A DNA stretch of 64,000 bases from an uncultured virus (IMG/VR IMGVR_UViG_3300032212_000001) (Duplodnaviria; Heunggongvirae; Uroviricota; Caudoviricetes), in IMG/VR virus record IMGVR_UViG_3300032212_000001. The stretch is one strand, 5' to 3'. Below, piece by piece: positions 1 through 29,572 of the stretch; positions within the stretch are counted from its first letter, which is position 1; every line of letters starts with the position of its first letter. The notes below the pieces were generated by a model. The model made no database searches. It saw only the letters and a program-made list of their open reading frames with translations, and was not told where the DNA came from. The position numbers were made by a program, and so were the translations under genes.

Positions 1-90
1 CCTGAACATTTCGATAAGGGCGACATGCCGCTCATAATCAACACAATAAATAGGGAGGGACACCACGTCGCCCTTATCGAAATGTTCAGG
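1..90. repeat. 24-bp perfect inverted repeat (1-24 / 67-90) with a 42-nt loop
   Basis: cctgaacatttcgataagggcgac and its exact reverse complement gtcgcccttatcgaaatgttcagg. Confidence 0.9.
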
Positions 91-101
91 AGGTCAACAC
101 C

Positions 102-254
102 ATGAGCAGGACACGACGCCATATCAAGTCACCTGGAAAAGAACACTGGGGAAAGCGACCGGGCAATAAGGGTGGACAGACACCCGGTAAGAATGTCAAG
201 AGAAAAACTCACAAGGCCGAAAGACGAGCCTGGAAGAAAAGCCTCAAGGGTTGA
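102..254 (+). CDS. small basic hypothetical protein (50 aa, not in ORF track)
   Basis: AGGAGG at 88-93; MSRTRRHIKSPGKEHWGKRPG...KTHKAERRAWKKSLKG. Confidence 0.6.
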   Translation: MSRTRRHIKSPGKEHWGKRPGNKGGQTPGKNVKRKTHKAERRAWKKSLKG

Positions 255-494
255 TCGCGCCCCATGAGTCAAGACCTAATCCTTGCCTAATTTACATTTT
301 ACAAAACTTTTACAAATGGATTCAGGCAAGTCGAGCGGCGATCTCTAAGCAAATACCGTTCCTAAAAGAGCCCTAACGGCAAAATAATCTCAATTTACCC
401 CCTTGTGCTGTATAAGAAACGCCCGTATCTTATACAAACCGACTTGAATCAACTAACTAACTACTTAACTCACTCACGAAAAAGGAAAACGACC

Positions 495-599
495 ATGGCT
501 TATCAGGGATCACTCAAGGACCGATACGACATTTACGTGAGGTGTGCAACAGACATGGGATGGCCCATCAAGACTTTCGATGAATGGGTCAAGAGCTAA
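495..599 (+). CDS. small hypothetical protein
   Basis: AAGGA upstream of ATG 495; MAYQGSLKDRY...FDEWVKS. Confidence 0.55.
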   Translation: MAYQGSLKDRYDIYVRCATDMGWPIKTFDEWVKS

Positions 600-633
600 C
601 AATCACAATCACCTATGACAAGGAGAGAGACCA

Positions 634-978
634 ATGAACACGTTACAAAGAATATTCAATGACAACAGACGAACAAGAAACCCCAACCCAGACGCCAGCA
701 AGATACAGGCTTGCATTAAAGAAGGGTTATTCGTTGTCGTGTCAGAGGGGCCAGACTACTGCCCAAGCACAGACGCGATCATGGGCTCCATAACATACTT
801 CGACTCTGCCTTCAAGACTCGTGAGAAAGCTGAAATACAGGCCCACACCCACGAAGCCGGATGCGACGGGGAGATTTCATTCAACGTTCTCCCCGCGCTT
901 CCTCCCGTTGAGCCCAAGACACCCATGGGGAGACCAGTAACAACTAAATACGAAGAAGGCGACGACGTTCCCTTTTGA
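634..978 (+). CDS. hypothetical early protein with SSB-like acidic C-terminus (GDDVPF)
   Basis: GACAAGGAGA RBS at 617; co-oriented ORF. Confidence 0.7.
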   Translation: MNTLQRIFNDNRRTRNPNPDASKIQACIKEGLFVVVSEGPDYCPSTDAIMGSITYFDSAFKTREKAEIQAHTHEAGCDGEISFNVLPALPPVEPKTPMGRPVTTKYEEGDDVPF

Positions 979-1020
979 GCCTGACTGGTGGACGCGGGAG
1001 GTTCGATTCCTCCCCTGGCT
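978..1020 (+). ncRNA. tRNA-like mini-element (T-arm GGAGG-TTCGATT-CCTCC, closing AGCC/GGCT)
   Basis: canonical T-loop hairpin and GG-containing D-like loop, no anticodon arm; starts at the upstream stop codon. Confidence 0.45.
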
Positions 1021-1050
1021 ATTTCAATTAACACTGACAAGGAGATAACC

Positions 1051-1443
1051 GTGAAGATGAACACATTCAAAGAGATTTCAGGAATATTCAAGGTCAAGGT
1101 CAATTACCAGGACAATCCAGTCACACGAGTCGGCGTCGGCGCAGTCGAAGGGCGCGGTATCCATCACGAGTTCAACACCGGATCGGTGAAGTGGAGTAAA
1201 GGCGGAAATAGCTACGTCATTGTCCCCGTAGAGAAGGCAAGCACTAGCGATTATTACAGAGGTTGGAAGTGGACTGACCGCAAGGGCACAGGACACATCG
1301 TCGCGCTGATATCTATAAACGGTATCGGTGAAATCCGCTGGGATACTCAGAGCCCAAGAGACGCCTCGCAAGACTCATGGTATATGGACGGATTGACAAA
1401 AGAAGAAGTCACCGCGTGGGGACTCACGCCTATCAACTCTTAA
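1051..1443 (+). CDS. hypothetical protein
   Basis: GACAAGGAGA at 1036; start GTG 1051 or ATG 1057. Confidence 0.7.
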   Translation: MKMNTFKEISGIFKVKVNYQDNPVTRVGVGAVEGRGIHHEFNTGSVKWSKGGNSYVIVPVEKASTSDYYRGWKWTDRKGTGHIVALISINGIGEIRWDTQSPRDASQDSWYMDGLTKEEVTAWGLTPINS

Positions 1444-1483
1444 GCCCCAAGGTGGTTGTGGCTGGTTCGATTCCGGCCAGGGC
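1441..1483 (+). ncRNA. tRNA-like mini-element, copy 1 of an identical 43-bp repeat
   Basis: taagccccaaggtggttgtggctggttcgattccggccagggc; T-arm GCTGG-TTCGATT-CCGGC. Confidence 0.5.
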
Positions 1484-1539
1484 GATCCGGTTAAAGTGAC
1501 CGGAACTACAAAAGACAATTAGAAGAAAAGGAAATCACC

Positions 1540-1965
1540 ATGGCTTTGAATTACTACTACGGGGACGTGAAGGATAAAGATGAGTTATTCCACCCCGAGG
1601 GTCACCCGCGAGAAGGTTATATGAAAGCGTTCGCCGAGATGATCTTCATGGGCACACTTAGCGTCGGCATGAACCGAATCAAGAACAAGGAAGAGGCTAA
1701 AAAGTATTTCATTCGAGCCCGCTATGTGAACGCGCTCTCTCGCGGCAACGGACCATTCACGATCTCCCGCCACGACAGCGAGAAGGACGAATGGGTCAGC
1801 GAGGAGATCACACTGGGACAGTGCGAGCGCATGATAGGCATGAGCACTAACGCAGATAAGTGGACAGACAACCAGTTCGCAAAGAAGGCTTGGGAAGTCT
1901 TCAAGAGAGACTCTGAAGCACGTATCAAGAGAGAAACGAAGAAGCTTCAAGTCGCAAGCAAGTAA
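1540..1965 (+). CDS. hypothetical protein
   Basis: AAGGA RBS, 141-aa ORF in early block. Confidence 0.75.
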   Translation: MALNYYYGDVKDKDELFHPEGHPREGYMKAFAEMIFMGTLSVGMNRIKNKEEAKKYFIRARYVNALSRGNGPFTISRHDSEKDEWVSEEITLGQCERMIGMSTNADKWTDNQFAKKAWEVFKRDSEARIKRETKKLQVASK

Positions 1966-2005
1966 GCCCCAAGGTGGTTGTGGCTGGTTCGATTCCGGCC
2001 AGGGC
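1963..2005 (+). ncRNA. tRNA-like mini-element, copy 2 of the identical 43-bp repeat
   Basis: exact copy of 1441-1483, again starting at the TAA stop. Confidence 0.5.
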
Positions 2006-2031
2006 TGTTCAAAAATGACAAGGAGAGACAC

Positions 2032-3285
2032 ATGCAAGACATTCCAACAACACGACCCCTGGAACTCAGTAACTTGAGCGACAAGCAGCGCAAAATCCGC
2101 GACAGCTTCAGAGGATCAAAGAGCCAAATTAAGATCCTTGAAGAACTGCGCCAGGGCAAGCAGCCCAAAGAGGGGCGAAGCCTCAAGTCTCTCATCGACA
2201 AAGGGATTGTCTGCCGGAATGAGGATGGTGAAATTCTGGAAAACGCTTTCTGGGCCGAGTTCGATCTGCTCATGGACACCAAGGCGCGCCAACAGCTCGT
2301 CATGCTCTACGACAACGCACCCAAGAGAAAGAATCCTGAGCGCACCCGCCCGCACCAGGACGACCCATTCATAGTCTCCTGTGGCGTCGGCGTTGACAGC
2401 GTAGCTATCCTTGTCGGCCTTGCAAAACTCTACAAGGAAACGGGCAACAGGAAGTTCCGGCCAGACGCCATCCAATTCGCCGACACCCAAGCTGAGAAAC
2501 CCATCACCTACCAATACATCCCTATACTCAATAAATGGCTTCGCCGCCAGGGTTTCCCCTCCCTAACCGTCGTTACCCAAGTGTTCCCCAAGAGCACATA
2601 CACGAGCCCATACGAGAAGATGATCCACAACGAGACCATGCCGTCACCCGCTCTCGGTGGTGGTCACTCCTGCTCACTGTCTTGGAAGGTCGAGCCCATG
2701 AACCGCTGGTGCTCTGGCTACAAAGAGAAACACGCCAAGGCGCGGCTAACAGACGAGCAGCGCGAGGCCAAGGGCGCGTCTGGAACGTGTATGCAGGGCT
2801 GGGAAGGTGGCTGGACTCCCGCTTACCGTTGCTGGGAGCGTGGCGGCAAAGTCCTGAAGGCAATCGGCTACAACGCTGACGAGGCTCATCGTAACTGGTC
2901 TAAGACAGACGACGAGAGCTACCGCTACTGGTATCCCCTCTTAGAGTGGCAATGGGACCGTGAGCGCTGCGAGAAGGAGATCGGAAACGCCGGACTGCCG
3001 GTCCCTCAAAAGTCAGCGTGTTTCTTCTGCCCAGCCAACAAGCCAGAGGAGGTCCGGCTACTCGCCCGTGACTACCCTGAGCTTTTCGAGCAAGCTTTGC
3101 TCATGGAGCGCACAGCCCGCGACGGGAAGCACGGATTTGACACGACCCTGGGGCTTGGCCGAACGTTCTCCTGGGAAGAGGTCGCTTATGACGGTGGGCC
3201 TGTGGCCGAGAGCTTTGGATCGTCGTGCGAAAAGGAATTTACAGGCATTGGAGTTCAAGCTGGACTCTTCAGCTTTGTAGTCTGA
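2032..3285 (+). CDS. PAPS-reductase-like PP-loop (adenine nucleotide alpha hydrolase) protein
   Basis: SCGVGVDS PP-loop, FADTxAE, CSxxWK, IGYNADE, YPLLEW, P.KSACFFCP; start after RBS at 2017. Confidence 0.75.
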   Translation: MQDIPTTRPLELSNLSDKQRKIRDSFRGSKSQIKILEELRQGKQPKEGRSLKSLIDKGIVCRNEDGEILENAFWAEFDLLMDTKARQQLVMLYDNAPKRKNPERTRPHQDDPFIVSCGVGVDSVAILVGLAKLYKETGNRKFRPDAIQFADTQAEKPITYQYIPILNKWLRRQGFPSLTVVTQVFPKSTYTSPYEKMIHNETMPSPALGGGHSCSLSWKVEPMNRWCSGYKEKHAKARLTDEQREAKGASGTCMQGWEGGWTPAYRCWERGGKVLKAIGYNADEAHRNWSKTDDESYRYWYPLLEWQWDRERCEKEIGNAGLPVPQKSACFFCPANKPEEVRLLARDYPELFEQALLMERTARDGKHGFDTTLGLGRTFSWEEVAYDGGPVAESFGSSCEKEFTGIGVQAGLFSFVV

Positions 3286-3301
3286 AAAGGGGAATCGTCT
3301 C

Positions 3302-3553
3302 ATGAGAAAAGCAAAGTTCTTAGTCCAAGTGAAGAAATACGATGGGATGGGAGCAAGGAATCCATACCGGAGGCGGCGAATGAGAATGACAGCCTTCAAG
3401 ACAGTTTCAAAGCACTCATCACTGAAGGAGGCCAAGGACGATTATTTCAAGAAACGCAAGAGGCCAGGGTTACATATGTTCCGTGTCACATACAAAGGAG
3501 AGGTCGTTGTAGACCCTCTTGGCCGCAACTACCCAATCGAAGAAGGGAAATAA
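3302..3553 (+). CDS. hypothetical basic protein
   Basis: tightly packed co-oriented ORF. Confidence 0.6.
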   Translation: MRKAKFLVQVKKYDGMGARNPYRRRRMRMTAFKTVSKHSSLKEAKDDYFKKRKRPGLHMFRVTYKGEVVVDPLGRNYPIEEGK

Positions 3554-3555
3554 AC

Positions 3556-3774
3556 ATGAATCAGTGCGAAGACTACCCCTGCTGTGGACACGAATCTGGA
3601 TGTTGCCCTGACTTTGACGAGTCAGGCAAGCAACTCAATATGAAGTGTGTGTGCGGCGCATCAGTGCCGCTAGACTCACCCACTTCACTTTGCCATGGGT
3701 GCCTCAACCAACCAACGATGGACGACGAATACTATGACTACGATGACGAATACCACATGGGAGAAGATTGCTAG
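3556..3774 (+). CDS. small Cys-rich protein (CEDYPCCGH...)
   Basis: Cys clusters, acidic tail, operon packing. Confidence 0.65.
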   Translation: MNQCEDYPCCGHESGCCPDFDESGKQLNMKCVCGASVPLDSPTSLCHGCLNQPTMDDEYYDYDDEYHMGEDC

Positions 3775-3787
3775 GAAAACGTTTTCC
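3774..3787. promoter_or_regulatory. 14-bp palindrome GGAAAACGTTTTCC (representative of 23 dispersed copies)
   Basis: perfect copies at 3774, 8295, 9812, 15483, 17968, 46009; 17 further copies with 1-2 mismatches. Confidence 0.8.
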
Positions 3788-3820
3788 ACAATGAAATAAC
3801 GCAACAAGAAAGACCGAACA

Positions 3821-4012
3821 ATGAAATCAAAAATCAAGATCAAACCGAGGAAGTTCCCAGGGGCAACGAGACCCACACCTTGCGCCTGGAAGTGCAAGGC
3901 ACCAGCGCCCTCGACATTCTATGTGAGAGACCATCCTTTCAACAAAGAACTAGAAATAAGGAAGTGCCCCGACTGCCTACAAAAAACGGCTTACCCCAAG
4001 AACAAGGTCTAA
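3821..4012 (+). CDS. small Zn-ribbon-like protein
   Basis: CAWKC...CPDC. Confidence 0.5.
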   Translation: MKSKIKIKPRKFPGATRPTPCAWKCKAPAPSTFYVRDHPFNKELEIRKCPDCLQKTAYPKNKV

Positions 4013-4030
4013 AACCTAAAGAGAGCAGCG

Positions 4031-4225
4031 ATGATGATTTACTTAAAAGACTCTATTCACAAAACGCTCGTCAATCTCGTCAACGAAGACGTGGAAGCCT
4101 GGAAGAAAGAGTCTGACGAAAATAAACACAAGAATACGGAGCTTGAAAAGCTCTTTGACGCCTACGTAGCACTCAAAGGAGAACCACACCCAGACGACCA
4201 TGGAGACGAGAACAATGAGCAGTAA
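4031..4225 (+). CDS. hypothetical protein
   Basis: operon packing. Confidence 0.55.
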   Translation: MMIYLKDSIHKTLVNLVNEDVEAWKKESDENKHKNTELEKLFDAYVALKGEPHPDDHGDENNEQ

Positions 4226-4502
4226 ACAAGAGCCTATCAATACCACCAAAGAAGCGAAGCCAATAACAAACTCTGAAGGGCTTTATTATTACCCTGCGAC
4301 GGGAATCTGCATAATGCCCCCCAACAACTCTACCAACAACATTAAATTCTGCACATTCGTAGTCGTCGCAAAAAACAAATTCGAGGCTTTGGGGAAGTCT
4401 ACAACTGTCGCAGACGAATACTACAAGAAAGAAGCAATCATGGGAGCAATCGTCAGATCAGGGATCAGTGATCCTGTATCAGAATCAAATATAGCTCTCT
4501 AG
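4215..4502 (+). CDS. hypothetical protein
   Basis: GGAG RBS before ATG 4215. Confidence 0.55.
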   Translation: MSSKQEPINTTKEAKPITNSEGLYYYPATGICIMPPNNSTNNIKFCTFVVVAKNKFEALGKSTTVADEYYKKEAIMGAIVRSGISDPVSESNIAL

Positions 4503-4519
4503 TAGAAACGGCCAATGCA

Positions 4520-4954
4520 TTGATTGACAGACATATAGAAGAACTTAGAAGATACCTCCACGCGAACCCAGACGATGACCATTCGCGGCTCTCGCTGCTG
4601 AGAGCACTTGAACGAGCTGATGGAGTGAAACGAATCCCAGTCAAAGATGGTGATACTCTTACCAAAGGGCAGATTTCAGCAGTCATACCTATCGCCGATA
4701 AGAAGCCGGAAAAGCCAAAACCAAAGGGAGATGACTTTATGGTTGAAGCGAGGAACCTAATGGCTCCCGTATTCTTCTGGAGCACAGTAGTCTTCGCCCT
4801 CATGGCTGTTTATGCCTTCGGAGGAATGATCGTTACAATCCTAATGCCTGGAGACTTGTTCTGGGAGCCGTTCTTCAATTTCTTCGGAGACTTGACTATT
4901 TCGGCGTCGATAATTCTTCAAATACAAGCTGTCACCAAACAATTCAATAAATAA
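4520..4954 (+). CDS. membrane protein with TIGR02996-like N-terminal motif
   Basis: LHANPDDDHSRLSLLRALER; hydrophobic C-terminal segments. Confidence 0.55.
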   Translation: MIDRHIEELRRYLHANPDDDHSRLSLLRALERADGVKRIPVKDGDTLTKGQISAVIPIADKKPEKPKPKGDDFMVEARNLMAPVFFWSTVVFALMAVYAFGGMIVTILMPGDLFWEPFFNFFGDLTISASIILQIQAVTKQFNK

Positions 4955-4990
4955 ACAAGGAAAACGCTTTCCGAGACAAGGAGACGGTCA

Positions 4991-5254
4991 ATGAAAGCTT
5001 ACATGAAAAGGATTGCCTACGAGAGACAGCCAAGAATAAAGTATCTCGTGTTCGTTGGAAAGAACGGTCGGTCGAACCTCTACAACGTCATGTTTGTAAC
5101 AGGAGAGGACAATCATCAACACATAATATTCCACAGTAATCGAAAGCGTATTGAAGCTCATGCAGTCGGTTACTTCCAAAACCGAGGAAGCACATCAGAC
5201 AAGGCTATCAAAGCCGTATCAAAGGCAATTCGCATTGAACGCAAGACTAACTGA
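4991..5254 (+). CDS. hypothetical protein
   Basis: GACAAGGAGA at 4975. Confidence 0.65.
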   Translation: MKAYMKRIAYERQPRIKYLVFVGKNGRSNLYNVMFVTGEDNHQHIIFHSNRKRIEAHAVGYFQNRGSTSDKAIKAVSKAIRIERKTN

Positions 5255-5268
5255 CAAGGAGAGAAAAC

Positions 5269-5562
5269 ATGTTCCCATTCTACAAAGAAGCCAAGATCGT
5301 TGTCCAAGTTCGCAACGTGCCCGATGGAGAGACAATAACCAAGAGGACCGGGACGAACAAATACACGGTCTGCCGGAAAATCACTGTCTACTACAAAGGC
5401 AATGCAGACAAGCAGGAGATCAACGCAGACGGAAGCGTTGTGTTCATTACATCAAAAAACAATCCAGACAAATTCAATGCCCTTGGCGCTTTCACAGAAG
5501 TTGTTTGGCACACGACATGGGACATCATTGAAGAAATGCTTGAAGAATCAAGAAGCAAGTAA
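5269..5562 (+). CDS. hypothetical protein
   Basis: GACAAGGAGA at 5253. Confidence 0.65.
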   Translation: MFPFYKEAKIVVQVRNVPDGETITKRTGTNKYTVCRKITVYYKGNADKQEINADGSVVFITSKNNPDKFNALGAFTEVVWHTTWDIIEEMLEESRSK

Positions 5563-5933
5563 TGGGAGTCTTCGATATGGAACCAAAAACAGTCAAGGTC
5601 ACCTGCACCAAATGCGAAGGCCAGCGCTATCTCAACGGCGACCAATACGAGGGGCACAAGGGACAACCCAAGGCTTGCTATGCCTGTCATCGCACTGGTG
5701 TTCAAGAAGAGATCCCTGGAGCCCCTGACGCCGTGCCAGGGAGCGTCGTGACGATCCATAGGGGGGAATGGCACTACACATTCAAAGCGCTCTCTGAGAG
5801 GGTCGTAACGCTCCATAGCTACGTTGACAGTATCGAGTGTGGAGTAAGCCCCGCCAAGGTCACTTGGCACCCTGTCGGCATGTCTCGCTGGTTGTTCAAG
5901 AAACTCATCGATCAAGGCTACAAAATCAAATAA
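5562..5933 (+). CDS. protein with DnaJ-type CxxCxG zinc motif
   Basis: CTKCEG...CYACHRTG; TAATG coupling. Confidence 0.6.
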   Translation: MGVFDMEPKTVKVTCTKCEGQRYLNGDQYEGHKGQPKACYACHRTGVQEEIPGAPDAVPGSVVTIHRGEWHYTFKALSERVVTLHSYVDSIECGVSPAKVTWHPVGMSRWLFKKLIDQGYKIK

Positions 5934-5946
5934 GAAAGGCATTGAA

Positions 5947-6153
5947 ATGCGTAAGAACAAAGTCAAAACATTGGCAAGAAAAGTCCAAAACCACTTCGGT
6001 TGCAGCTACTCAACAGCTCGTCGCTTCGTGACTGAAAACCTGGAGGAAATCAGCGAGGACACCTCGAACCTTATCGAGTTAGCTTCGGATTTCGGACTCG
6101 TTAAGACATACTCAAAAAAACTAGAAGAAACGTTTTTGGAAACAATGGAGTAG
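5947..6153 (+). CDS. hypothetical protein
   Basis: operon packing. Confidence 0.55.
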   Translation: MRKNKVKTLARKVQNHFGCSYSTARRFVTENLEEISEDTSNLIELASDFGLVKTYSKKLEETFLETME

Positions 6154-6160
6154 AACACCA

Positions 6161-7063
6161 ATGCCGAAAATCGAATTTGATTACAGCCTAAGCTTCACCG
6201 AAAAATCCCTGGCAATGATAGAGAATATCAACCTGATACTCTTGGAATACGAAGAACAGGGATTCGACCTGACTCTCAGACAGCTCTACTACCAACTCGT
6301 CGCCCGAGACATGATCGAGAATACCCAAAAAAGCTACAAGCGCATTGGAGCCCTTGTGGGAAAGGCCCGCATGGCTGGATGCATCGACTGGGACCACCTC
6401 GTTGACAGAACCCGAAATGTGAAAACACCAGCCTTCTGGAACAGTCCCCAGGAGATCGTCGAGACATGCGCTGACCAGTTCAAAATAGACCTTTGGAAGA
6501 AACAACCACAGCGCGTAGAAGTCTGGATCGAGAAGGACGCCCTGGTAGGCGTTTTCGAGGGGATCTGTAATCGCATGAGACTTCCTCTTTTCTCCTGTCG
6601 CGGCTATACCAGCCTGAGTGAAATGTATTCAGCGGGGAACAGAATAAGAGACTACGGCGGAAACAAGCCAACGATCATACTCCACTTCGGGGACCACGAT
6701 CCCAGTGGAATCGACATGACCCGAGACATCAGGGAGAGACTCAATACCTTTGCCCAAAGAAAAGTCGTGGTTGAAAGGATTGCGCTCAACATGGAGCAGA
6801 TTGAGGAGTTCAACCCGCCCCCCAATCCTGCAAAGCTTGCCGACTCAAGGGCGAAGGATTACTGCGACAAATACGGCAACAGTTCGTGGGAACTCGACGC
6901 CTTGACCCCATCGACCCTTGAGTCACTGGTCGAAAGAAACGTCAATAGAATCGTTGACGGGAAGCTCTGGAACGAATCACTCGACAGAGAGAATGAACTT
7001 AAAACACAGCTCCAATATGTCTCTGACAATTGGATGGAAGTGATAAGAGGCCAAAATGACTAA
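6161..7063 (+). CDS. Topoisomerase VI-A/Spo11-like TOPRIM-domain protein
   Basis: LTLRQLYYQLV wHTH, VWIEKDAL, RGY, GDHDPSG, ELDAL. Confidence 0.75.
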   Translation: MPKIEFDYSLSFTEKSLAMIENINLILLEYEEQGFDLTLRQLYYQLVARDMIENTQKSYKRIGALVGKARMAGCIDWDHLVDRTRNVKTPAFWNSPQEIVETCADQFKIDLWKKQPQRVEVWIEKDALVGVFEGICNRMRLPLFSCRGYTSLSEMYSAGNRIRDYGGNKPTIILHFGDHDPSGIDMTRDIRERLNTFAQRKVVVERIALNMEQIEEFNPPPNPAKLADSRAKDYCDKYGNSSWELDALTPSTLESLVERNVNRIVDGKLWNESLDRENELKTQLQYVSDNWMEVIRGQND

Positions 7064-7346
7064 AGAAAAAGCAATCAAAGAAGAAGTTGTCATACCGTGG
7101 AGACCCCAGTGCTCTTGCTGCAAAAAGCCCATGAACGTTATCATTGAACAACCTGGATTCACTCTCAATAGGACGAGAATGTTAGACGCCGAACAAGCTC
7201 AGATTGTTGTAGAAGTCGATTATCGTTGTCAATTCTCATTCCGCCAAGAAACCTTCTCAATCCCCGCCATTATCTATCAAGGCATAAAAGACGCCTATAT
7301 CATCAAAAACAAAGATCTTTACAAAAACATAAGGAGAAGATCATGA
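7056..7346 (+). CDS. hypothetical protein
   Basis: overlapping start/stop coupling. Confidence 0.55.
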   Translation: MTKEKAIKEEVVIPWRPQCSCCKKPMNVIIEQPGFTLNRTRMLDAEQAQIVVEVDYRCQFSFRQETFSIPAIIYQGIKDAYIIKNKDLYKNIRRRS

Positions 7347-7840
7347 ACAACCAGCCTCCACCCGAATGTTTTCTTTGCGAAGAGGAAATCAACGATCCAT
7401 ACGTTCACTACGGCAAGAACAATAAACCAACATGCCTCAAGTGCTGCGAGGACCACAACGAGATCGTCGAAATAGGAATCACCTTAGATCAATACTCAGC
7501 CCTTGAAGACTATTCGAGCCTCACGCCTTTCGAGATTGGCAAATTGATTACAAAGGGCGTTGCCGCTATCCGCGTCTTGATAAAGAAGGCCCAAGACGAA
7601 AAGAACCCCTCCATTGACATCCCAATGACTAGGGATGTTGAGCAATTCATGAAAAACGGAGGGTACTACAAAAAGATCAGCGTTGAAATCCCGCGCTCCT
7701 ACAAAACAATCATCAACCAACTGGCAAGCTGGATGCCTTGCATACAGCTCAAAAGTGAGAGCGCAAGCGATTGGGTCACAATGGTCGCTCTTGGACAGAC
7801 GATCAACTCAATCAAACCCCAAGGAGGTAAAGAACAGTGA
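7343..7840 (+). CDS. Zn-finger-containing hypothetical protein
   Basis: AAGGAG RBS; CFLC...CLKC. Confidence 0.6.
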   Translation: MNNQPPPECFLCEEEINDPYVHYGKNNKPTCLKCCEDHNEIVEIGITLDQYSALEDYSSLTPFEIGKLITKGVAAIRVLIKKAQDEKNPSIDIPMTRDVEQFMKNGGYYKKISVEIPRSYKTIINQLASWMPCIQLKSESASDWVTMVALGQTINSIKPQGGKEQ

Positions 7841-8295
7841 GAGATTCTCCAATCGTGGAGCCCAAGAACAGCTTCGACGCATTGACAACATATTTGGCTC
7901 AGAGAGACATTGAACGGGATTATTGGAAGAAATCCTACAAGACCGTTTCCGAGTCTGGAGAGAGCCACATAACAATGCCTCTTGGCAAAAATACAGCCCT
8001 AAAGGCTCTTCCTCACGTCCTCGAATGGAGATTACTATTTGACGAGTATGACATCCCAGTCAAACTCGAAATTCATGGCGGCAATGTCCATTTCAAGTTC
8101 AAAAATCACAACGACGCTGAATATGCCTTCCTTATCCTTCACGAAGAACCACACAAGGCACTGACTGAAGAACAATTGAAGGAGTCTGAAGGATTGAAGC
8201 AGACAAACATGTGGAAATGGTTGCCCTTTATTGGACTGTCCTTCGTTGGTCTATTCGCAGAAATCAGCCGCAAGAAAAAGATCCTTAAGAACTAG
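7837..8295 (+). CDS. hypothetical protein with C-terminal hydrophobic segment
   Basis: GGAGG RBS, GTGA coupling. Confidence 0.6.
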   Translation: MRDSPIVEPKNSFDALTTYLAQRDIERDYWKKSYKTVSESGESHITMPLGKNTALKALPHVLEWRLLFDEYDIPVKLEIHGGNVHFKFKNHNDAEYAFLILHEEPHKALTEEQLKESEGLKQTNMWKWLPFIGLSFVGLFAEISRKKKILKN

Positions 8296-12195: not shown

Positions 12196-12687
12196 ATGAA
12201 TGAAGACATAGGTTTATTTCACATTGGAGCTGGTGAAACCGAAGTAGACGCGGCTCATCGCATATCTAAATCACTGCCTTCATTGAGAACAGCCATCTTA
12301 AATCAAATAAGTGAGGCTGGTGACAGAGGAATCATTCCAGACGAAGCCTGGGAGTCCATAGTCAAGTGGAGGCCAGGGACGCCTGAACCGTCTGTCAGGC
12401 CAAGATTCAACGAGCTGTGGGAATCAGGTCTCATTCGCCGGAATGGATCGACTCGAAAGAACAGGCGCGAAGGCGAAGAAGAGGTTTGGGTTTCCGGCGT
12501 AGATCCTGTCGCGATCAATCGACGAAAAGCCAAGAGGCGCAATAAAGCACTTTGCATAGGCTGTCTACTCAAAGGCTCGGTAAAGAAACTAAAAGACAAC
12601 GTTTTAGACCTCATCGAAAAAGGTCGTTCGGTGCGCTGCTCTGATTGCGGCTTCACCATGCAACTTAAGGAAGAAAAAGACAAATGA
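12196..12687 (+). CDS. winged-helix DNA-binding protein with Zn ribbon
   Basis: SVRPRFNELWESGLI; CIGC...CSDC. Confidence 0.55.
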   Translation: MNEDIGLFHIGAGETEVDAAHRISKSLPSLRTAILNQISEAGDRGIIPDEAWESIVKWRPGTPEPSVRPRFNELWESGLIRRNGSTRKNRREGEEEVWVSGVDPVAINRRKAKRRNKALCIGCLLKGSVKKLKDNVLDLIEKGRSVRCSDCGFTMQLKEEKDK

Positions 12688-14042
12688 AAGAATGGCCCGT
12701 TCATTACAAAGAAAGACTGGCAATCCAAGACCCTGAAAGCAACGTCGCCGTTTGCTGCCTATGGTCTCCCCAGAAGTCTATAGTGAGGAAGCTCGGAGAC
12801 TGCAAAGTATCAGTGATTGGCAATCTATACTCACTACAAGGAATCAACTACTTAATCAGGAACATTCTGGCAAAGCCAACAATAACACACTTGGTCATCT
12901 GTGGACATGACCTGACTGGATCTGGAGCGGCCCTATGGAGTCTCTTACAAAACCAAGGCAAGCCTGATTTCATTGACAACGGCATTGATATCAAAACTCT
13001 AAATTTAGTGAGAAGAAACGTCACCCCACACTTATTCTTGGAGGGTGGTAGCTTGGGATTCAAGCCTTCTATGATCGAGGCTATGAAAGGTCATTCGGAG
13101 CCCTGGAGCGATCCTATTGAACTGCCAATACCGAGGGCCAAAGCCGAACAACTACCCAGCCATGAGGTTGTAGAGGTTGTTCGCGAGCCTAAGTTCTACG
13201 ATGCATGGCTTCGAGCGCTCAAAACGATCATGGCATTTGGCAACATTTCCCCAACTCAGTATGGAGATCGTCAACGGGAAATCATAAACATGACTATCGT
13301 GACCGACGAGCCCACTGAAGAAGTTGATTTGTCATTATTTGACATAGATCAACACGAGTTCGACTCCTATGTCAACAGCCTTTTGTTTGGAAGGCATGGA
13401 GCCAATGTCTCTTACACATACGGCTCAAGGTTCACCAAGGATTTTGGCATAAATCAACTCAGCGCAATCACTCAAACTCTTCAAGACAACTATGACTCAC
13501 GACGAGCCGTCGCTTGCACATGGAAGGCCAGTAGCGACGGCTTCTCAAAAAACCCACCATGCCTCATCCTGATTCACGCAATGGTCAGGGGAGGGCTCAT
13601 CATGACCTGCTACATAAGAAGCAATGACATGTATCGAGCTTGGCCTCTCAACGCCTTAGCACTGCGCCGCGTTCAAGAAATCATCGCCCAGGACGTAGGA
13701 GTCGCGACTGGCACCTTGACCATCATTTCTGGCTCCGCTCATGTTTACGAGCCATGTTGGATCGAAGCAAACAAGAGAATCGAATCCGACAAATCCAAAT
13801 ACGCTTTCAAAGTAGACCCTCGCGGAAGCTTTGTCATAAAGGTCAAGGAGGGACAAATCATCGTTGAGCACTTCTCCCCAGAGGGCTTGAAATGCTCTGA
13901 GTTCACTGTCAAGCGATCCGCCGATGCAAAGAGAAAGATGATGCCGATGATTTCCTCTGTGGCCCACGCTCTCTATATCGGTCGCGAACTAGAGAGAGCG
14001 CAAAACGCACTCGATCAAGGATTGGAATACAACAACCAATGA
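12684..14042 (+). CDS. thyA: thymidylate synthase family protein with MtrA-like N-terminal and DUF4346-like C-terminal domains
   Basis: YTYG.R, SRRA, PPCL, RSND...AWPLN, SAHVY; N-terminal VAVCCLWS..IGNLYS..GIN; C-terminal DPRG.F...HALYIGREL. Confidence 0.75.
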   Translation: MKEWPVHYKERLAIQDPESNVAVCCLWSPQKSIVRKLGDCKVSVIGNLYSLQGINYLIRNILAKPTITHLVICGHDLTGSGAALWSLLQNQGKPDFIDNGIDIKTLNLVRRNVTPHLFLEGGSLGFKPSMIEAMKGHSEPWSDPIELPIPRAKAEQLPSHEVVEVVREPKFYDAWLRALKTIMAFGNISPTQYGDRQREIINMTIVTDEPTEEVDLSLFDIDQHEFDSYVNSLLFGRHGANVSYTYGSRFTKDFGINQLSAITQTLQDNYDSRRAVACTWKASSDGFSKNPPCLILIHAMVRGGLIMTCYIRSNDMYRAWPLNALALRRVQEIIAQDVGVATGTLTIISGSAHVYEPCWIEANKRIESDKSKYAFKVDPRGSFVIKVKEGQIIVEHFSPEGLKCSEFTVKRSADAKRKMMPMISSVAHALYIGRELERAQNALDQGLEYNNQ

Positions 14043-14179: not shown

Positions 14180-14698
14180 ATGAAAAATGTAAAGAAACGA
14201 AAAAAACGGTCCTATCACGGATCGGAGACACTCCGAAAATACCGAAGTAGAGCCATGAGAGCCAATGACCTGATCCGAGTCATTGCAAGTCATGGTCGCA
14301 GGTTCTTCGCTCAGTGTTCGGACATGAACACTCCCGACAAAGAAATGACTGGACGGATCTCATACTTCGAGGTCAACAATCAAGGCCACATATTCTTTGT
14401 TAATGCCTACAAACTGAGCAGAGTCTATCTCAATAGAGAGAAATACTATTGGAGACATTGGCAGCACGGTGGGACGCTGAAGGATCTCGTTGAAGCTCTG
14501 CGTGATTACATCAAAACCGGGGAGCCAATACCAGGGCACCTTGGCCCACACCCCCAATGGTATTCCCAGGGTGACCCCTGGGGCTACGGCGAAGAATCCA
14601 TGGGTAAGGTTCGAGACGCCGCTGTAAGACTCGGCATTTATCCAAAAGAAAAGAAGAAGGCTGTAATCACAGAAGTCGAGTCAGGAGAAAAAAAATGA
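14180..14698 (+). CDS. phage-type hypothetical protein
   Basis: GACAAGGAGA at 14165; HGRRFF, HGGTLKDLV, WGYG motifs. Confidence 0.65.
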   Translation: MKNVKKRKKRSYHGSETLRKYRSRAMRANDLIRVIASHGRRFFAQCSDMNTPDKEMTGRISYFEVNNQGHIFFVNAYKLSRVYLNREKYYWRHWQHGGTLKDLVEALRDYIKTGEPIPGHLGPHPQWYSQGDPWGYGEESMGKVRDAAVRLGIYPKEKKKAVITEVESGEKK

Positions 14699-15483
14699 AC
14701 ACCCAAGCACTATCGGACACATCGACTGAAGCCTTCATGAAAGGCAATCCCTTCTCCGACGCTTTTGTCAAGCAAGAATACGACTTCTACGGAGTCAGCG
14801 AGAATTATAAAAAGGACGGACTAAGAGTTATCCAGCAAAACGTCATCGGGCGCTGTGACGACTATCTAAACAAGAATTTCAGAGTCGGAATGAAAAGCCT
14901 CGCTCTAATCAAAGAGGGGGATGTTTGGATGTCTCTCACCCCCATGGAAATCGAATCGAACTACCTGCACATTTTCGAGGCAGAGGGTCAGGTTTTCACT
15001 GGTGGCCTTGGACTTGGATACTTCCCCCTTCGCGCAGCGGCCAAAGAGAGCGTTGAGAGCGTTGTTGTATACGAGACCGATAAAAGAGTCATAGACTTCT
15101 TCAAGAGCGCTCACAGCGCTCGCAAGGAGCTTGAGAAGATCGAAATCCGCGAGTCCTGTTGGAGAGAAGCTCTAAGATCGGGTGATATCGAATACCACGA
15201 CTACATTTACAGCGACATCTACCCTTACCTTTGCGATGACGATATTCTCGACGATATAAGGGAGTTTCACAGCTCGTTCCAATTCTTTCGATTCTGGGGA
15301 ATGGAAAAGGTGATTGTTTCGGCAGCAATGTCCTACGGGCACCAAAGCCACCTCCTATCAACATGGGGCAATCTTCGTCCTTACCTAAAGAAGTGGTTGG
15401 ACAACGAAGAGAAAACAAGCCTCTATTACCCGGCCCCTGACGAAGATTACTGTCTAGAAATTACAAAACTCCTCGAAATCTAG
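14695..15483 (+). CDS. spermidine-synthase-like class I SAM-dependent methyltransferase
   Basis: WMSLTPME, GGLGLGY, VVVYE.D..VI. Confidence 0.65.
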   Translation: MNTQALSDTSTEAFMKGNPFSDAFVKQEYDFYGVSENYKKDGLRVIQQNVIGRCDDYLNKNFRVGMKSLALIKEGDVWMSLTPMEIESNYLHIFEAEGQVFTGGLGLGYFPLRAAAKESVESVVVYETDKRVIDFFKSAHSARKELEKIEIRESCWREALRSGDIEYHDYIYSDIYPYLCDDDILDDIREFHSSFQFFRFWGMEKVIVSAAMSYGHQSHLLSTWGNLRPYLKKWLDNEEKTSLYYPAPDEDYCLEITKLLEI

Positions 15484-16727: not shown

Positions 16728-17119
16728 AGAAAAAGGGCAAGGAGAGCGCTGATCTACCAAAGAGGGAGCACGACCAAGGGTGCGATGGCTCTCCATGGGG
16801 TAAAGGCAAGCGATGCAAGTGCTCTTATTACAAAAAGTGCCCAAACTGTCACTACCTTGAAAATGGAGCCAACTCAAGACACTGCGCTCACTGCAATTTC
16901 GAGCTAAGAGGACCAAACAAGAGGGAGCCACAAAAACAATGTGGATCATGCTCTCAAATGTTCATTGATTCGTCTTTCCTAATATCAATACCAATAAGTG
17001 TTTACGAAGATTCAAGAAGTGAATCTAACTTCGTTTCAATCTGCGACAAGTGCGCCCCCGACTGGTTCGAGAAAGTCCAGAAGTTATGGGCGCAATTCAA
17101 AAAGGAGAAAGACCGTTGA
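16724..17119 (+). CDS. multi-Zn-finger protein
   Basis: four CxxC pairs. Confidence 0.6.
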   Translation: MKKKGKESADLPKREHDQGCDGSPWGKGKRCKCSYYKKCPNCHYLENGANSRHCAHCNFELRGPNKREPQKQCGSCSQMFIDSSFLISIPISVYEDSRSESNFVSICDKCAPDWFEKVQKLWAQFKKEKDR

Positions 17120-17748
17120 GTTACAGACCTATTACAGATGTATGGATTTTAGCCCGTGCCAAGCTTCGAGACGGGCACAAGTATTATGGCGCTTACCCAG
17201 CAGGATTCCTTCACAGGGCTCGTCACATGCTCGGCGTTCGACCTTGCGATCCAGTTCTCCACGTTTGCTCAGGGAAAGTTGATAAGAATCTTTACTCGGG
17301 CTTTGGCCCCAATGACAAAACTCTGGATCTCGATCCCGCTCTCAATCCAGATTTCCACATCGATGCCAGAGATATCGGATCAACCAAAGGCTCTTCCTTC
17401 CCGAGATTGGTTGATAACGAAACACACATCTCCCAGGTTTCAAGCAACGAAGAGGGCCAGGACATTGCAAAACTTGGTGAATGGGGTGCGATATTAATCG
17501 ACCGCCCATACACAAGAGAAGACGCCAAACACTATGCGCCGGGTGAAGGTGCGCTGCCGAATCTCAATGATCTTCTAAAGCATAGCCTGTCTATGCTGCC
17601 CATTGGTCGCCGCGTAGGCGTCATTGATTACCTTTGGCCTCACCCTGGCAAATGGGGCAAAGAAGTCGCGGTCATCGGAGTCGGAACAGGACGAAACAAC
17701 AGAGCCCGCTGGTTCACAGTGTTCGAGCGGATAAAAGACCACAGTTAA
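17116..17748 (+). CDS. putative nucleic-acid amino-methyltransferase
   Basis: YYGAYP, VLHVCSG (motif I), DLDP..NPD, IDRPY (DPPY-like); TTG start after AAGGAG. Confidence 0.55.
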   Translation: MSYRPITDVWILARAKLRDGHKYYGAYPAGFLHRARHMLGVRPCDPVLHVCSGKVDKNLYSGFGPNDKTLDLDPALNPDFHIDARDIGSTKGSSFPRLVDNETHISQVSSNEEGQDIAKLGEWGAILIDRPYTREDAKHYAPGEGALPNLNDLLKHSLSMLPIGRRVGVIDYLWPHPGKWGKEVAVIGVGTGRNNRARWFTVFERIKDHS

Positions 17749-22124: not shown

Positions 22125-23189
22125 ATGGCTCGACGAAAGAAAACGAATAAGAAAGACGACAAGAAGAAAGTCGTCATTTACTGTCGAGCCTCCACTGGCA
22201 AGCAGGAGATAAGCCCCGAAGCTCAAGAGCAAAGGCTTAGACAGCAAGCCGAGTTCAAAGGCTTCGAGGTTATCGACGTTCTCGTTGACAAGGGGATATC
22301 GGGAGGAAAGGGCCAAGATGACCGCCCAGGGCTCAAGAAAGCCCTCTCTATGCTCGAAGAGGACAAAGCAAACACTCTCATGGTCACCAAGCTCGACAGG
22401 CTCTCTAGGAGCGTCTCAGACGGCTCTAAGATGATCGAGCGGTATTTCCGTGGAAGATACGATCTCGTCGTCTTAGAGCCCGAGATAGACACCACCAGCG
22501 ACTTCGGAGAGTTCACTGCGAACCTAATGCTCAATATCGGTCAGCTTGAGCGCCGTCTTATATCAACAAGAACAGCGGAAGCTCTAGCCTATCTGAGCAG
22601 CAAGGGAGTCGTTCTTGGCGGTCGAATGTTTGGGTGGAAACACACAGACAAAAGAGACGAGAGCAAGCGGCGAATAAGAAAAGAGATACCAGAGGAGCAA
22701 GAGGCGATAAAGACCATGATCGACATGCGAGCAAAGGGAGCCACATTCGACAAGATCGCCATGAGAATGAACATGGAAGCCATTCCTACTGTCATGTCTG
22801 GCAAGTGGTATCAAAGCGACGTAAGAAACATAATCGAGAAGAAACTAGAGACCAACAAGGCCATTGATGAAATCATCTCGGCTAAGGTCTCCAAAGACAT
22901 TGAACAATCCGACAAAGAGGCGAACAACTACAAGCCTAGTAAGAACGTGTGCCAGGATATCGCCGAGACTCTTAATAACCTTGGGCTTCAAAAGCCTAAC
23001 GGCGGCAAATGGTATCGAGGGACCGTTCAAAAAATAATCAAGCGCGTTACAGACGCATATAGGGAGTCAAAATCTCATGACAGACCAAAATCACTCGGCC
23101 AGTCCGATCAAGATGAAGACGGACGCGGAGATTCTCCACGAGAGAATGAGAACGCTGGAGAGCCTGACACTCCCATTAAGCAAGGGTGA
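22125..23189 (+). CDS. serine recombinase (resolvase catalytic domain plus recombinase domain)
   Basis: IYCRAST.KQ, D.GISG, RPGL, KLDRLSRS, ER..ISTRT. Confidence 0.9.
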   Translation: MARRKKTNKKDDKKKVVIYCRASTGKQEISPEAQEQRLRQQAEFKGFEVIDVLVDKGISGGKGQDDRPGLKKALSMLEEDKANTLMVTKLDRLSRSVSDGSKMIERYFRGRYDLVVLEPEIDTTSDFGEFTANLMLNIGQLERRLISTRTAEALAYLSSKGVVLGGRMFGWKHTDKRDESKRRIRKEIPEEQEAIKTMIDMRAKGATFDKIAMRMNMEAIPTVMSGKWYQSDVRNIIEKKLETNKAIDEIISAKVSKDIEQSDKEANNYKPSKNVCQDIAETLNNLGLQKPNGGKWYRGTVQKIIKRVTDAYRESKSHDRPKSLGQSDQDEDGRGDSPRENENAGEPDTPIKQG

Positions 23190-29533: not shown

Positions 29534-29572
29534 GGCTTGCTCCTTGTCATTCAAGCGGGTCGGCTGTCGTAT

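Follow-up and report, generated by a model that had tools for sequence, protein, structure and literature searches.

Anticodon-less mini-tRNA elements at consecutive stop codons of a phage-like DNA as candidate punctuation marks of its messages

What does a tRNA-like fold that cannot decode do at the junction of two protein genes? The question is raised by the first kilobases of a 64,000-nucleotide viral DNA (the window, meaning the whole stretch analysed), in which the original prediction placed three tRNA-elbow mimics at the stop codons of consecutive genes. This placement was borne out. The stop codons lie at 976-978 (TGA), 1441-1443 (TAA) and 1963-1965 (TAA), the conserved block begins within the stop in 3/3 cases, and the third base of the stop (A978, A1443 and A1965, respectively) is also the first position of the closing helix. 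The features of the locus are listed below.

634..978, + strand: gene A, 114 aa, without family match; its TGA overlaps element 1
978..1020, + strand: mini-tRNA element 1, 53.2 bits, part of the model seed
1051..1443, + strand: gene B, 130 aa from GTG 1051, without family match; its stop overlaps element 2
1443..1484, + strand: mini-tRNA element 2, 27.4 bits, E = 1.4e-5, outside the seed
1486..1504, + strand: small hairpin immediately past element 2, stem 1486-1491 with 1499-1504, 7-nt loop
1540..1965, + strand: gene C, 141 aa, without family match, bracketed by the identical elements 2 and 3
1965..2006, + strand: mini-tRNA element 3, 31.4 bits, E = 8.2e-7, outside the seed
2032..3285, + strand: gene D, PAPS-reductase-like, phrog_424, E = 1.1e-24

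Genes A-D are the first genes of a long co-directional block, A-C being small, and the co-oriented elements, each on the coding strand, separate A/B, B/C and C/D (3/3, + strand). Nothing was found in Pfam or PHROGs for genes A-C, and the protein Atlas gave no usable match for gene C. Gene A is preceded by a conserved ribosome-binding context, GACAAGGAGAGA. Gene B has AAGGAG 6 nt upstream of GTG 1051, and the mechanical ORF from 988 begins within element 1. Gene D is the first gene past element 3 and is not followed by an element. The best non-self homologue of its PAPS-reductase-like product is 47% identical (among 233 proteins), and with this protein as query no relative was found in viral contigs. 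Overall, elements occupy 3/6 junctions in the first 3.3 kb and 0 in the remaining ~60 kb. Six terminator-like sites were found in 1-4000, all on the - strand. Since the + strand carries no such site in this range, genes A-D can share one transcript. The elements were rejected as intrinsic terminators because no T-run stands behind them and all terminator-like sites are on the - strand. The palindrome GGAAAACGTTTTCC was considered as a second punctuation mark and rejected, about half of its 22 copies lying inside ORFs. The hairpin at 1486..1504 was read from the letters and lies within the MFE fold of 1435-1500; it follows element 2 only, while elements 1 and 3 run straight into a ribosome-binding site context. 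Blastn of 1-8000 against cultured phages returned 13 records, the best covering 3% of the query.

The letters of the elements agree with the remaining description in the original prediction. The blocks 1441-1483 and 1963-2005 were said to be identical and are, at 100% over 43 nt; the block 977-1019 is 60% identical to them (repeat family D6), and similarity between copies ends sharply at either edge. Because elements 2 and 3 are identical, the window offers only two independent examples. The predicted T-arm with a TTCGATT loop is present in all three, as GG TTCGATT CC, the form of a canonical tRNA T-arm, in which G53-C61 closes a 5-bp stem and the 7-nt loop is of the TTCRANY type. Its exact core GGTTCGATTCC, an 11-mer, has 3 copies versus 0.03 expected, and 0/100 shuffles reach 3. 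Every element also has a D-loop remnant containing GGT. In element 1, the helix joins 978-981 with 1017-1020 plus 983:1015, GGTGG stands at 987-991, and the T-stem (996-1001 with 1009-1014) encloses the T-loop at 1002-1008. In element 2, the helix joins 1444-1447 with 1480-1483, A1443 facing G1484 without pairing; GGTGG stands at 1451-1455, and the T-stem (1459-1465 with 1473-1479, one U-G pair) encloses the T-loop at 1466-1472. In element 3, a pair forms between A1965 and T2006, which brings the 3' strand to 5 + 7 = 12 pairs without interruption. The T-stem is 6 pairs long in element 1 and 7 pairs long in the other two elements; at two positions both partners have changed, which upholds the claim that the stems vary and stay paired. 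The 3' strand measures exactly 12 nt in the window elements, running in element 1 from the T-loop to T1020. A984 and A1449 are unpaired, both opposite C, and helix position 3:70 is C-G in 3/3 elements. The 5' helix strand and the T-stem are only 11-14 nt apart, and the cloverleaf of a canonical tRNA, with its D-stem and anticodon arm, is absent. CCA is not encoded, and the bases after the helix vary: A in element 1, G then A in element 2 and G in element 3.

Within the window, the T-arm is the robust part of the fold and the closing helix is weak. With 30-nt flanks, the predicted pair probability is at least 0.93 for the T-arms, 0.02-0.04 for the closing stems of elements 1 and 2, and ~0.6 for that of element 3. 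The closing helices of elements 1, 2 and 3 have 5/6, 4/6 and 5/6 positions paired, respectively, with 4, 4 and 5 contiguous pairs. Runs of at least 4 contiguous pairs arise in 38% of contexts when flanks are swapped as a control. The short closing stem of the original prediction is thus present at 4-5 pairs, but judged alone it lies within chance and is not significant. Fold energies of the regions around elements 1 and 3 were no better than shuffled (z = -0.09 and -0.54, respectively). The expectation that tRNA callers would be negative proved correct, ARAGORN calling 0 tRNA genes in 64 kb. Rfam at gathering score gave nothing across the whole window, and its tRNA model had no match in 1-6000 even at E up to 10. 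A covariance model run over the window with filters off found no fourth copy, the next best match having E = 2. Genuine tRNA 3' halves sharing GGTGG also score about 33 bits with this model, so the score alone does not discriminate.

Judged by their sequences, the window elements are members of a widespread, apparently undescribed family of phage intergenic mini-tRNAs. Family members, which recur in unrelated viral and metagenome contigs, are built from a 6-pair helix resembling a tRNA acceptor stem, an unpaired A at position 7, a GGT motif and a 5-pair T-stem. They are spaced as 6 helix positions, the A, 1-3 nt, GGT, 4-5 nt that remain of a variable loop and the T-arm, and the 3' strand ends 11-13 nt past the T-loop. 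From T-loop to helix end this gives 12 layers, the number found in a tRNA, with no D-stem and no anticodon arm. The window elements have this order and spacing (model R1; alignments A5 and A7). Members lie on the coding strand in gaps between co-directional, mostly small genes, in the window as in G006, L235/L236, G001 and the mycobacteriophages Indlulamithi and Zenon. Those in G006, Indlulamithi and L235 have closing helices with 5-6 Watson-Crick pairs, and closing stems of at least 6 contiguous pairs occur in 21/103 viral contexts versus 4.4 expected. In G006, a single strand has 7 non-tRNA T-loop sites, and 5 of these occupy consecutive small-gene junctions. One metagenome contig has 4 copies between consecutive ORFs of ~320-400 aa with similar N-termini, and G001 has 2 copies separated by 1.1 kb. 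In the cultured Mycobacterium phage Indlulamithi, a T-arm-like element is present in 10/10 junctions longer than 20 nt within gp40-gp51; 8/10 have the exact motif, and 0 are annotated. Zenon, also a cultured mycobacteriophage, has 7 model matches in its junctions. The order of element, small hairpin and ribosome-binding site recurs in G006, L235/L236, G001 and Indlulamithi and at element 2 of the window. Element 2 has 24 nt in common with elements of unrelated proviruses (the L002 group), 6 of these positions being free in the search pattern. For L016-type contigs, no cultured relative was matched. Among 64 viral loci with a topoisomerase-like gene (911,474 bases), 3 weak model matches were found, the best at E = 0.043 and none convincing. 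A search of the openly available literature at the level of abstracts found no description of anticodon-less tRNA-like elements at phage gene junctions.

Covariation in these relatives, which the original prediction had named as a check, is present. In alignments fitted to the model (A5 also includes members picked for their stems), the 18 elements outside the model seed had 93.8% of cells paired, versus 61.2% when shuffled and 39-54% when slid, and both sides changed at 10/12 pairs. Alignment A6, with the rows of its 5' strand out of register, was left out of these counts. A distance-class test of 5' partner strands among metagenome matches had a high null as soon as it admitted G-U pairs and runs of 5. 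Conservation within the family is highest in the parts that form the elbow, namely the GG of the D-loop remnant and the canonical T-loop, and the window elements also carry the family quirk of an unpaired A at helix position 7 opposite C. Support for the proposed selection on structure comes chiefly from relatives in other DNA, the window by itself not being enough. These alignments support the reading of the elements as mimics of the tRNA elbow or top half that lack an anticodon arm and are probably selected as structure.

Several known systems share parts of this design. In mitochondrial tRNA punctuation, tRNA-shaped units between genes signal processing, and the cut can leave stop codons incomplete. 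Those marks are working tRNAs, whereas the window elements cannot decode and the window is without a tRNA gene. The tRNA-like module mascRNA / MEN-beta (RF01684) lies at the end of a longer RNA and is excised by RNase P and RNase Z; unlike the window elements, it is vertebrate nuclear and has a reduced anticodon arm. The window elements had no match to RF01684 at E up to 10, and two L235 relatives match it weakly (24.3 and 22.9 bits), far short of the 42.5 bits set as gathering score. The tRNA-like domain of tmRNA and the tag-less tmRNA-like RNAs of phages share with the mini-tRNAs an acceptor helix, a T-arm, a stem-less D-loop analogue and the lack of an anticodon. tmRNA differs in its alanine G3-U70 pair and its CCA, whereas the window elements have C-G at 3:70, no CCA and a position in cis within an mRNA instead of genes of their own. 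The elements were rejected as a tmRNA tRNA-like domain, because the match of the Rfam tmRNA model is confined to 17 nt, the T-arm of element 1, and scores 9.9 bits versus a gathering score of 47, and because G3-U70 and CCA are both missing.

The t-elements of plant mitochondria, as described by Forner et al. 2007 (PMC1920247), combine the T-arm motif GGTTCRANYCC with a non-canonical tRNA-like fold in a longer transcript, and both motif and fold are found in the window too. According to the same paper, t-elements adjoin protein genes and are proposed or shown to guide RNase P and RNase Z in generating mRNA ends by cleavage; their 3' ends inside reading frames (nad6, ccmC) parallel the stop-codon overlap in the window. 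They are organellar, few per genome and termed a 'non-canonical cloverleaf'. The window elements are unlike them in their bacterial phage-like carrier, their uniform ~43-nt fold, their placement in consecutive junctions and the hairpin and ribosome-binding site that often follow, and cleavage here would be by analogy. [quoted passage not shown] As reviewed in PMC11143913, these parts are the least that RNase P RNA needs for cleavage at the canonical site, with 12 coaxial layers and a true T-loop as in the mini-tRNAs; with the T-loop replaced, efficiency falls and the site moves. The model substrates described there are synthetic, fully paired and usually end in 3' RCCA (PMC11143913), whereas in the natural elements an internal loop of 11-14 nt holds a D-loop remnant, position 7 is unpaired and CCA is not encoded; those of the window also contain mismatches.

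A punctuation role would fit the anatomy, namely the 12 layers and, often, a downstream hairpin and ribosome-binding site. We consider it quite possible, if a little short of probable, that the elements are cis-acting mimics of the tRNA top half that guide RNase P and RNase Z-type cutting of a polycistronic message. The elements would be transcribed within the message of the first small genes, fold in vivo and be read in cis by host tRNA-processing enzymes. RNase P would act on the 5' edge, placing its cut at the upstream gene's stop codon or within it, and an RNase Z-type or RNase E-type cut would follow just 3' of the helix. The operon RNA would thereby yield distinct mRNAs that differ in their fates. 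Past element 2, the downstream mRNA would start with a protective hairpin (if cut after A1485) followed by the ribosome-binding site. Anatomy, family membership, family covariation and junction placement are the directly established parts of this hypothesis, and RNase P is described in PMC11143913 as cutting mRNAs and phage RNAs too. Against cutting stand the weak closing helices, with elements 1 and 2 predicted mostly open in context, and the 3/6 junctions in the first 3.3 kb that lack an element, as well as the restriction of the downstream hairpin to element 2. A cut exactly at the helix edge would also deprive the stop codon of its last base, a loss that seems costly. A bolder version, which we regard as unlikely, turns this cost into a function. 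Phages of several bacterial phyla would use mitochondrion-like tRNA punctuation through dedicated 43-nt anticodon-less mini-tRNAs, and RNase P cutting on the last base of the stop would yield stop-less (UA-/UG-ended) messages. Translating these would either require 3' A-addition or lead to ribosome rescue, as a timer that shuts off the earliest genes.

Other readings place the function in the element itself or in the uncut message. An excised or embedded mini-tRNA could be the functional product, an abundant early decoy or sponge for a host factor that reads the tRNA elbow and the acceptor/T-arm, such as a tRNA-targeting defence nuclease, a modification enzyme, EF-Tu, the CCA-adding enzyme or RNase P. 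Junction placement would then be merely a convenient route to many copies. The strong conservation of the elbow-forming parts is as a decoy would have it, many diverse copies per genome would raise its dose, and members in L069 and L013 are followed by a hairpin and T-run, like stand-alone small RNA genes. The elements also sit among the first small genes, probably the usual site of host-takeover functions. A decoy has no need, however, to fill nearly every junction or to keep a fixed layout of hairpin and ribosome-binding site, and neither a tRNA-targeting system nor a partner was identified. Lacking an anticodon arm, it cannot pass for a substrate of anticodon nucleases. We hold this reading to be rather doubtful; it is compatible with processing, because release of a decoy needs cleavage. 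The predicted T-arm stability beside weak closing helices in elements 1 and 2 would also suit an mRNA structure that is never cut, a stable hairpin that blocks 3'-to-5' exonucleases or tunes termination and re-initiation, with tRNA likeness as ancestry only. With a start at the stop codon, the 3' end of an upstream cistron under protection could not be set any tighter. Blocking an exonuclease, however, does not call for an exact T-loop, a GGT, an unpaired A or a length of 12 layers, all of which the family keeps while its stem sequences vary freely. Ordinary hairpins also adjoin the elements, so hairpins and elements serve different roles. An uncleaved structure is in our judgement distinctly improbable.

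The elements could instead have no RNA function and be decayed tRNA genes or 3' fragments of host tRNAs left at att sites, and the original prediction had named a match to host tRNA 3' halves as an outcome that would count against it. Such a match exists in part. The T-arm and 3' helix strand of elements 2 and 3 (23 nt) equal those of tRNA-Leu genes that ARAGORN calls in metagenome contigs, and the same sequence recurs in tRNA-Leu 3' fragments in L269, L276, L286 and L302, although the search pattern fixes 18/23 positions and so imposes most of this identity. The 3' part of element 1 resembles the tRNA-Phe-type 3' ends that flank proviruses, and its helix has one broken pair relative to a G006 copy with the same 3' part; mismatches are present in the helices. 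The window further encodes a repressor-like protein and a recombinase, but this sole recombinase is of the serine type and lies at 22125-23189, 20 kb away. True att fragments, like the window elements, carry a T-arm and 3' acceptor strand identical or nearly so to real tRNAs. They also keep the anticodon stem and loop, discriminator and CCA, have no local 5' partner strand, and occur once per element end, singly or at both ends of a provirus. The window elements have no anticodon stem and no CCA, their discriminator is unlike that of tRNA-Leu, and the identity of elements 2 and 3 takes in the T-arm and 6-7 helix bases and ends before it. They were rejected as an att-site fragment, with three copies lying within 1.03 kb, ORFs of only 130-141 aa between them and no integrase adjoining. 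Exact 24-nt variants of T-arm plus 3' strand occurred in 0/7 matches from representative genomes of 185,579 species, a scan whose pattern excluded the tRNA-Leu type by its first two letters and so does not bear on that type. None of these 7 matches was called by ARAGORN or Rfam (E 0.001), and by comparison with att fragments they look like tRNA-Phe-type 3' ends. The family shows covariation, and the sharp 43-nt identity of elements 2 and 3 in unrelated flanks points to maintenance or precise duplication. The att-relic idea therefore fits poorly, and non-functional relics of any origin are very unlikely. The same identity, bracketing a single gene, and the 24 nt common to element 2 and the L002-group proviruses could mark junction linkers, short conserved boundaries at the DNA level where cassettes such as gene C are exchanged or gained through homologous recombination. 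Copies in G006 and Indlulamithi are diverse within the genome yet paired, the opposite of what a linker needs. Conservation of strand and structure points to RNA, and cassette exchange may be a side effect. We give linkers very little credence.

Cutting by RNase P and RNase Z-type enzymes can be directly tested, because cultured phage-host pairs carry the family. If it is true, an RNA class absent from Rfam and from phage annotation would be added, and the regular ~90-nt gaps between the small genes of Indlulamithi and Zenon would be explained. A 43-nt processing tag for synthetic operons would also become available. The principle of a split message is known from mitochondria and plant t-elements, and for phages no description was found in the literature searched. 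The overlap with the stop codon bears on whether bacteria treat deliberately stop-less messages as organelles do. If host tRNA enzymes cut these folds, phages would own a compact and portable signal for splitting operon messages.

The positions of the three tRNA-elbow-like elements, claimed in the original prediction to sit at the stop codons of consecutive genes, were exactly as claimed for genes A, B, and C. The region is organized as follows:

634–978, + strand: gene A, stop TGA at 976–978
978–1020, + strand: element 1
1051–1443, + strand: gene B, likely start GTG 1051 with AAGGAG 6 nt before it, stop TAA at 1441–1443
1443–1484, + strand: element 2
1540–1965, + strand: gene C, stop TAA at 1963–1965
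1965–2006, + strand: element 3
2032–3285, + strand: gene D, PAPS-reductase-like

A mechanical ORF for gene B, taken from 988, would start within element 1. At each junction, a conserved block starts within the stop codon and ends 42–43 nt on, and beyond this block the three junctions are unrelated to one another. Element 2 matches element 3 at all 43 nt, and element 1 shares 60% identity with both. The T-arm core, GGTTCGATTCC, occurs in three exact copies versus 0.03 expected, 3/3 on the coding strand, and three copies were reached in 0 of 100 shuffles. The three T-arms are not chance. ARAGORN called 0 tRNAs in 64 kb, the negative result that had been anticipated. Rfam returned no match in the whole window at gathering score; at E ≤ 10 in 1–6000, the sole match was the 17-nt T-arm of element 1 to the tmRNA model (9.9 bits).

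Each element reads as a mini-tRNA, with a closing helix, a GGT-bearing D-loop remnant, and a T-arm. The order is 5′ strand, 1–2 bases, GGTGG, 4–5 bases, T-arm, and 3′ strand. The 5′ strand has seven positions, the first of which doubles as stop-codon base 3 (A978, A1443, and A1965, respectively). The 3′ strand ends exactly 12 nt past the T-loop in all elements, the same 12 as the T-stem plus acceptor stem of a tRNA. Element 3 forms 5 + 7 = 12 pairs without interruption, element 2 lacks the outermost of these, where A faces G, and element 1 has four outer pairs, a T–T mismatch, one further pair, and a six-pair T-stem. Position 7 is A opposite C in all three. The tRNA-like fold of each isolated element lies at most about 1 kcal/mol above the minimum free energy. 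With 30-nt flanks, the T-arm pair probability is at least 0.93; that of the closing helix reaches about 0.6 in element 3 but only 0.02–0.04 in elements 1 and 2. Fold energies of the element 1 and element 3 regions were no better than shuffles (z = −0.09 and −0.54, respectively), and that of element 2 was marginal (z = −1.99). When 5′ and 3′ flanks were swapped among 103 listed T-arm contexts, at least four contiguous pairs still formed in 38%; the closing helices of the window, taken alone, could be explained by chance. Because they fall within this range, the window alone presents a 43-nt unit, repeated directly at stop codons and bearing a tRNA-type T-arm in each of its three copies, and leaves a closed mini-tRNA unproven. 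Support for the structural reading comes mainly from relatives elsewhere.

A pattern derived from the elements retrieved three distinct non-tRNA sequences from viral contigs, each with a 6–7-pair closing helix. A looser pattern matched at least 119 stretches. Among the matches listed were 103 distinct contexts, 21 of which had closing stems of at least six pairs versus 4.4 expected, about 10 of the 21 belonging to one single family. Whole contigs were then searched with R1, a covariance model built in this analysis, and elements were found to occur in groups. Contig G001 carries two copies 1.1 kb apart, in which all stems differ and pairing is kept. Metagenome contig L235/L236 carries four between consecutive ORFs of about 320–400 aa with similar N-termini; helix base 1 is the G of a TAG stop in two, and the stop lies 1–2 nt upstream in the other two. 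The 72-kb viral contig G006, which has no protein similarity to the window, holds seven T-loop sites of non-tRNA type, all on the same strand; five of them fall in consecutive small-gene junctions.

A blastn search with the G006 region led to cultured phages. In gp40–gp51 of Mycobacterium phage Indlulamithi, an element is present in 10 of 10 junctions longer than 20 nt, with the exact T-loop motif in 8 and annotation in 0. Model matches in this genome occur only at 35.0–42.4 kb, on one strand. Papyrusvirus phage Zenon has seven model matches, in the roughly 90-nt junctions of gp45–gp54. Viewed across the small-gene blocks of both phages (NC_048824.1 34410–40913 and KY969628.1 36516–42602, respectively), unannotated mini-tRNA plus hairpin units stand in nearly every ~90-nt junction. 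G006, Indlulamithi, L235/L236, and G001 share one layout: stop, 0–12 nt, mini-tRNA, 1–4 nt, small hairpin, ribosome-binding site, and start codon. Of the three window elements, element 2 alone is followed by the small hairpin (1486–1504). Several mini-tRNAs of G006 (25.1–23.5 kb, locus L403) are separated from the stop codon by a conserved leader, (A)TC(A/G)TGGT, that recurs in the Indlulamithi region L419 at 1619–1710 and 3604–3694.

Covariation was assessed in a set of 18 elements drawn from G006, Indlulamithi, and Zenon, 0 of which were in the model seed. In this set, fitted to the covariance model and thus biased toward structure, 93.8% of cells were paired versus 61.2% after shuffling (93.8% was reached in 0 of 500 shuffles) and 39–54% with partners slid. 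Both sides changed in 10 of 12 pairs, and the covariation score was 0.557 versus 0.116. Of 10 informative rows, 8 left position 7:66 unpaired, the 5′ base being A, a feature that the window elements share. A second alignment of 23 sequences, carrying the same fitting bias and partly circular because it includes members selected by their stems, gave 93.0% versus 57.1%. Real tRNA 3′ halves with GGTGG scored about 33 bits versus 27–31 for elements 2 and 3; the R1 score fails to separate the two classes, and membership was therefore based on anatomy and context.

Other viral loci showed different arrangements. In L016, L017, L018, L037, and related gut-type loci (~230–390), a single gene is preceded by two different mini-tRNAs, which are spaced about 130 nt apart and have short GGT-rich repeat runs between them. 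In loci L069 (388–470) and L013 (390–480), a terminator-like hairpin and T-run directly follow the mini-tRNA, so some family members may be stand-alone small RNA genes rather than junction elements. L019, L020, L021, L026, L057, L078, and about 20 similar loci carry tRNA-like genes that have GTA in an anticodon-loop context, encode CCA, and contain an over-long variable region. ARAGORN did not call these, which are possibly unusual tRNA-Tyr-like genes.

The window lies in a 124,372-bp contig of an uncultured phage-like element and has a G+C content of 47.5%. With 1–8000 as the blastn query, cultured phages gave 13 records with a best coverage of 3%, and no similar phage. The best homologue of the PAPS-reductase-like protein is 47% identical. 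Serine recombinase, repressor-like, ParB-like, primase, helicase, topoisomerase-like, and thymidylate-synthase-like proteins are encoded. Genes on the + strand run from base 102 onward with a strongly conserved ribosome-binding context (repeat families D4, D7, D8, D10, and D17), and an unusually long, conserved translation-start context, (T)GACAAGGAGAGA, stands ahead of many genes throughout the window (601–628, 1020–1047, 2014–2037, 5253–5273, and many more). An inverted repeat at 1–90 (27-nt arms, 96% complementary, 36 nt apart) adjoins the first small ORF (102–254) upstream; candidate roles are a regulatory hairpin, an origin, and an end structure. Three tandem 27-nt repeats, 96–100% identical, lie at 29103–29207 within a 552-aa ParB-like ORF (27896–29554, − strand). 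The 452-aa protein encoded at 12684–14042 joins a thymidylate-synthase-like core to a DUF4346 domain (pterin-binding) and has a weakly MtrA-like N-terminus. Methyltransferases are encoded at 14695–15483 and 17050–17748, and the set hints at modified DNA bases. The 14-nt palindrome GGAAAACGTTTTCC has 22 sites in 2238–63560 (at most two mismatches; e.g., 3774, 8295, 15483, and 46009) versus 0.54 expected, and in three copies the first base is the G of a stop TAG. About half lie inside called ORFs, making an RNA punctuation mark unlikely; the palindrome probably serves for binding or modification at the level of DNA.

The original prediction had also raised the contrary case of attachment-site relics matching host tRNA 3′ halves. 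The tRNA resemblance was borne out in part, but the attachment-site reading fits poorly. The T-arm and 3′ strand of elements 2 and 3 (23 nt, 18 of them preset by the search pattern) equal those of ARAGORN-called tRNA-Leu genes in metagenomes, where the scan gave 114 distinct contexts, 58 in called tRNAs and 11 of these tRNA-Leu. Four tRNA-Leu 3′ fragments also carry this sequence. In its 3′ part, element 1 resembles the tRNA-Phe-type ends flanking proviruses; largely owing to the search pattern, this part also shares 26 identical nt with one G006 copy that has a perfect helix. Genuine attachment fragments in our scans keep the anticodon stem/loop, discriminator, and CCA, often at both contig ends; all of these features are absent from the window elements. 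The three elements lie within 1 kb, separated by ORFs of just 130–141 aa, and the sole recombinase in the window is of the serine type, 20 kb away. Exact 24-nt pattern variants (T-arm plus 3′ strand) made up 0 of 7 matches in representative genomes. The elements are likely descended from tRNAs and not likely mere debris; that they are decaying sequences appears improbable, and a main role as recombination linkers, with the identical copies around gene C reflecting cassette exchange, is very improbable.

5′-Terminal hairpins protect bacterial mRNAs. RNase P docks on the elbow, gauging a distance of 12 bp from the T-loop, and its substrates include mRNAs and phage RNAs (excerpt of PMC11143913). 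Plant-mitochondrial t-elements, found via the same T-arm motif that the window elements carry, mark mRNA ends cut by RNase P and RNase Z, and their 3′ ends can fall within reading frames (excerpt of PMC1920247). Because the window elements show the anatomy that RNase P requires, the t-elements offer a precedent, and 1–4000 has no terminator-like site on the + strand, we tentatively favor cis-acting RNA processing signals. Cleavage at the 5′ edge of an element would create the end of the upstream message, and cleavage past the helix would create the start of the downstream message, hairpin-first after element 2. A cut at the helix edge would leave the stop codon without its last base, which might be a cost, might inactivate the earliest messages, or might be mended by A-addition. 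It is unlikely that the excised mini-tRNA is itself the product, acting as a decoy. A role for the T-arm as a stabilizer only seems quite unlikely. Our search of titles and abstract openings found no description of such elements in phages. Indlulamithi and Zenon provide a laboratory system in which the mini-tRNA family is testable.
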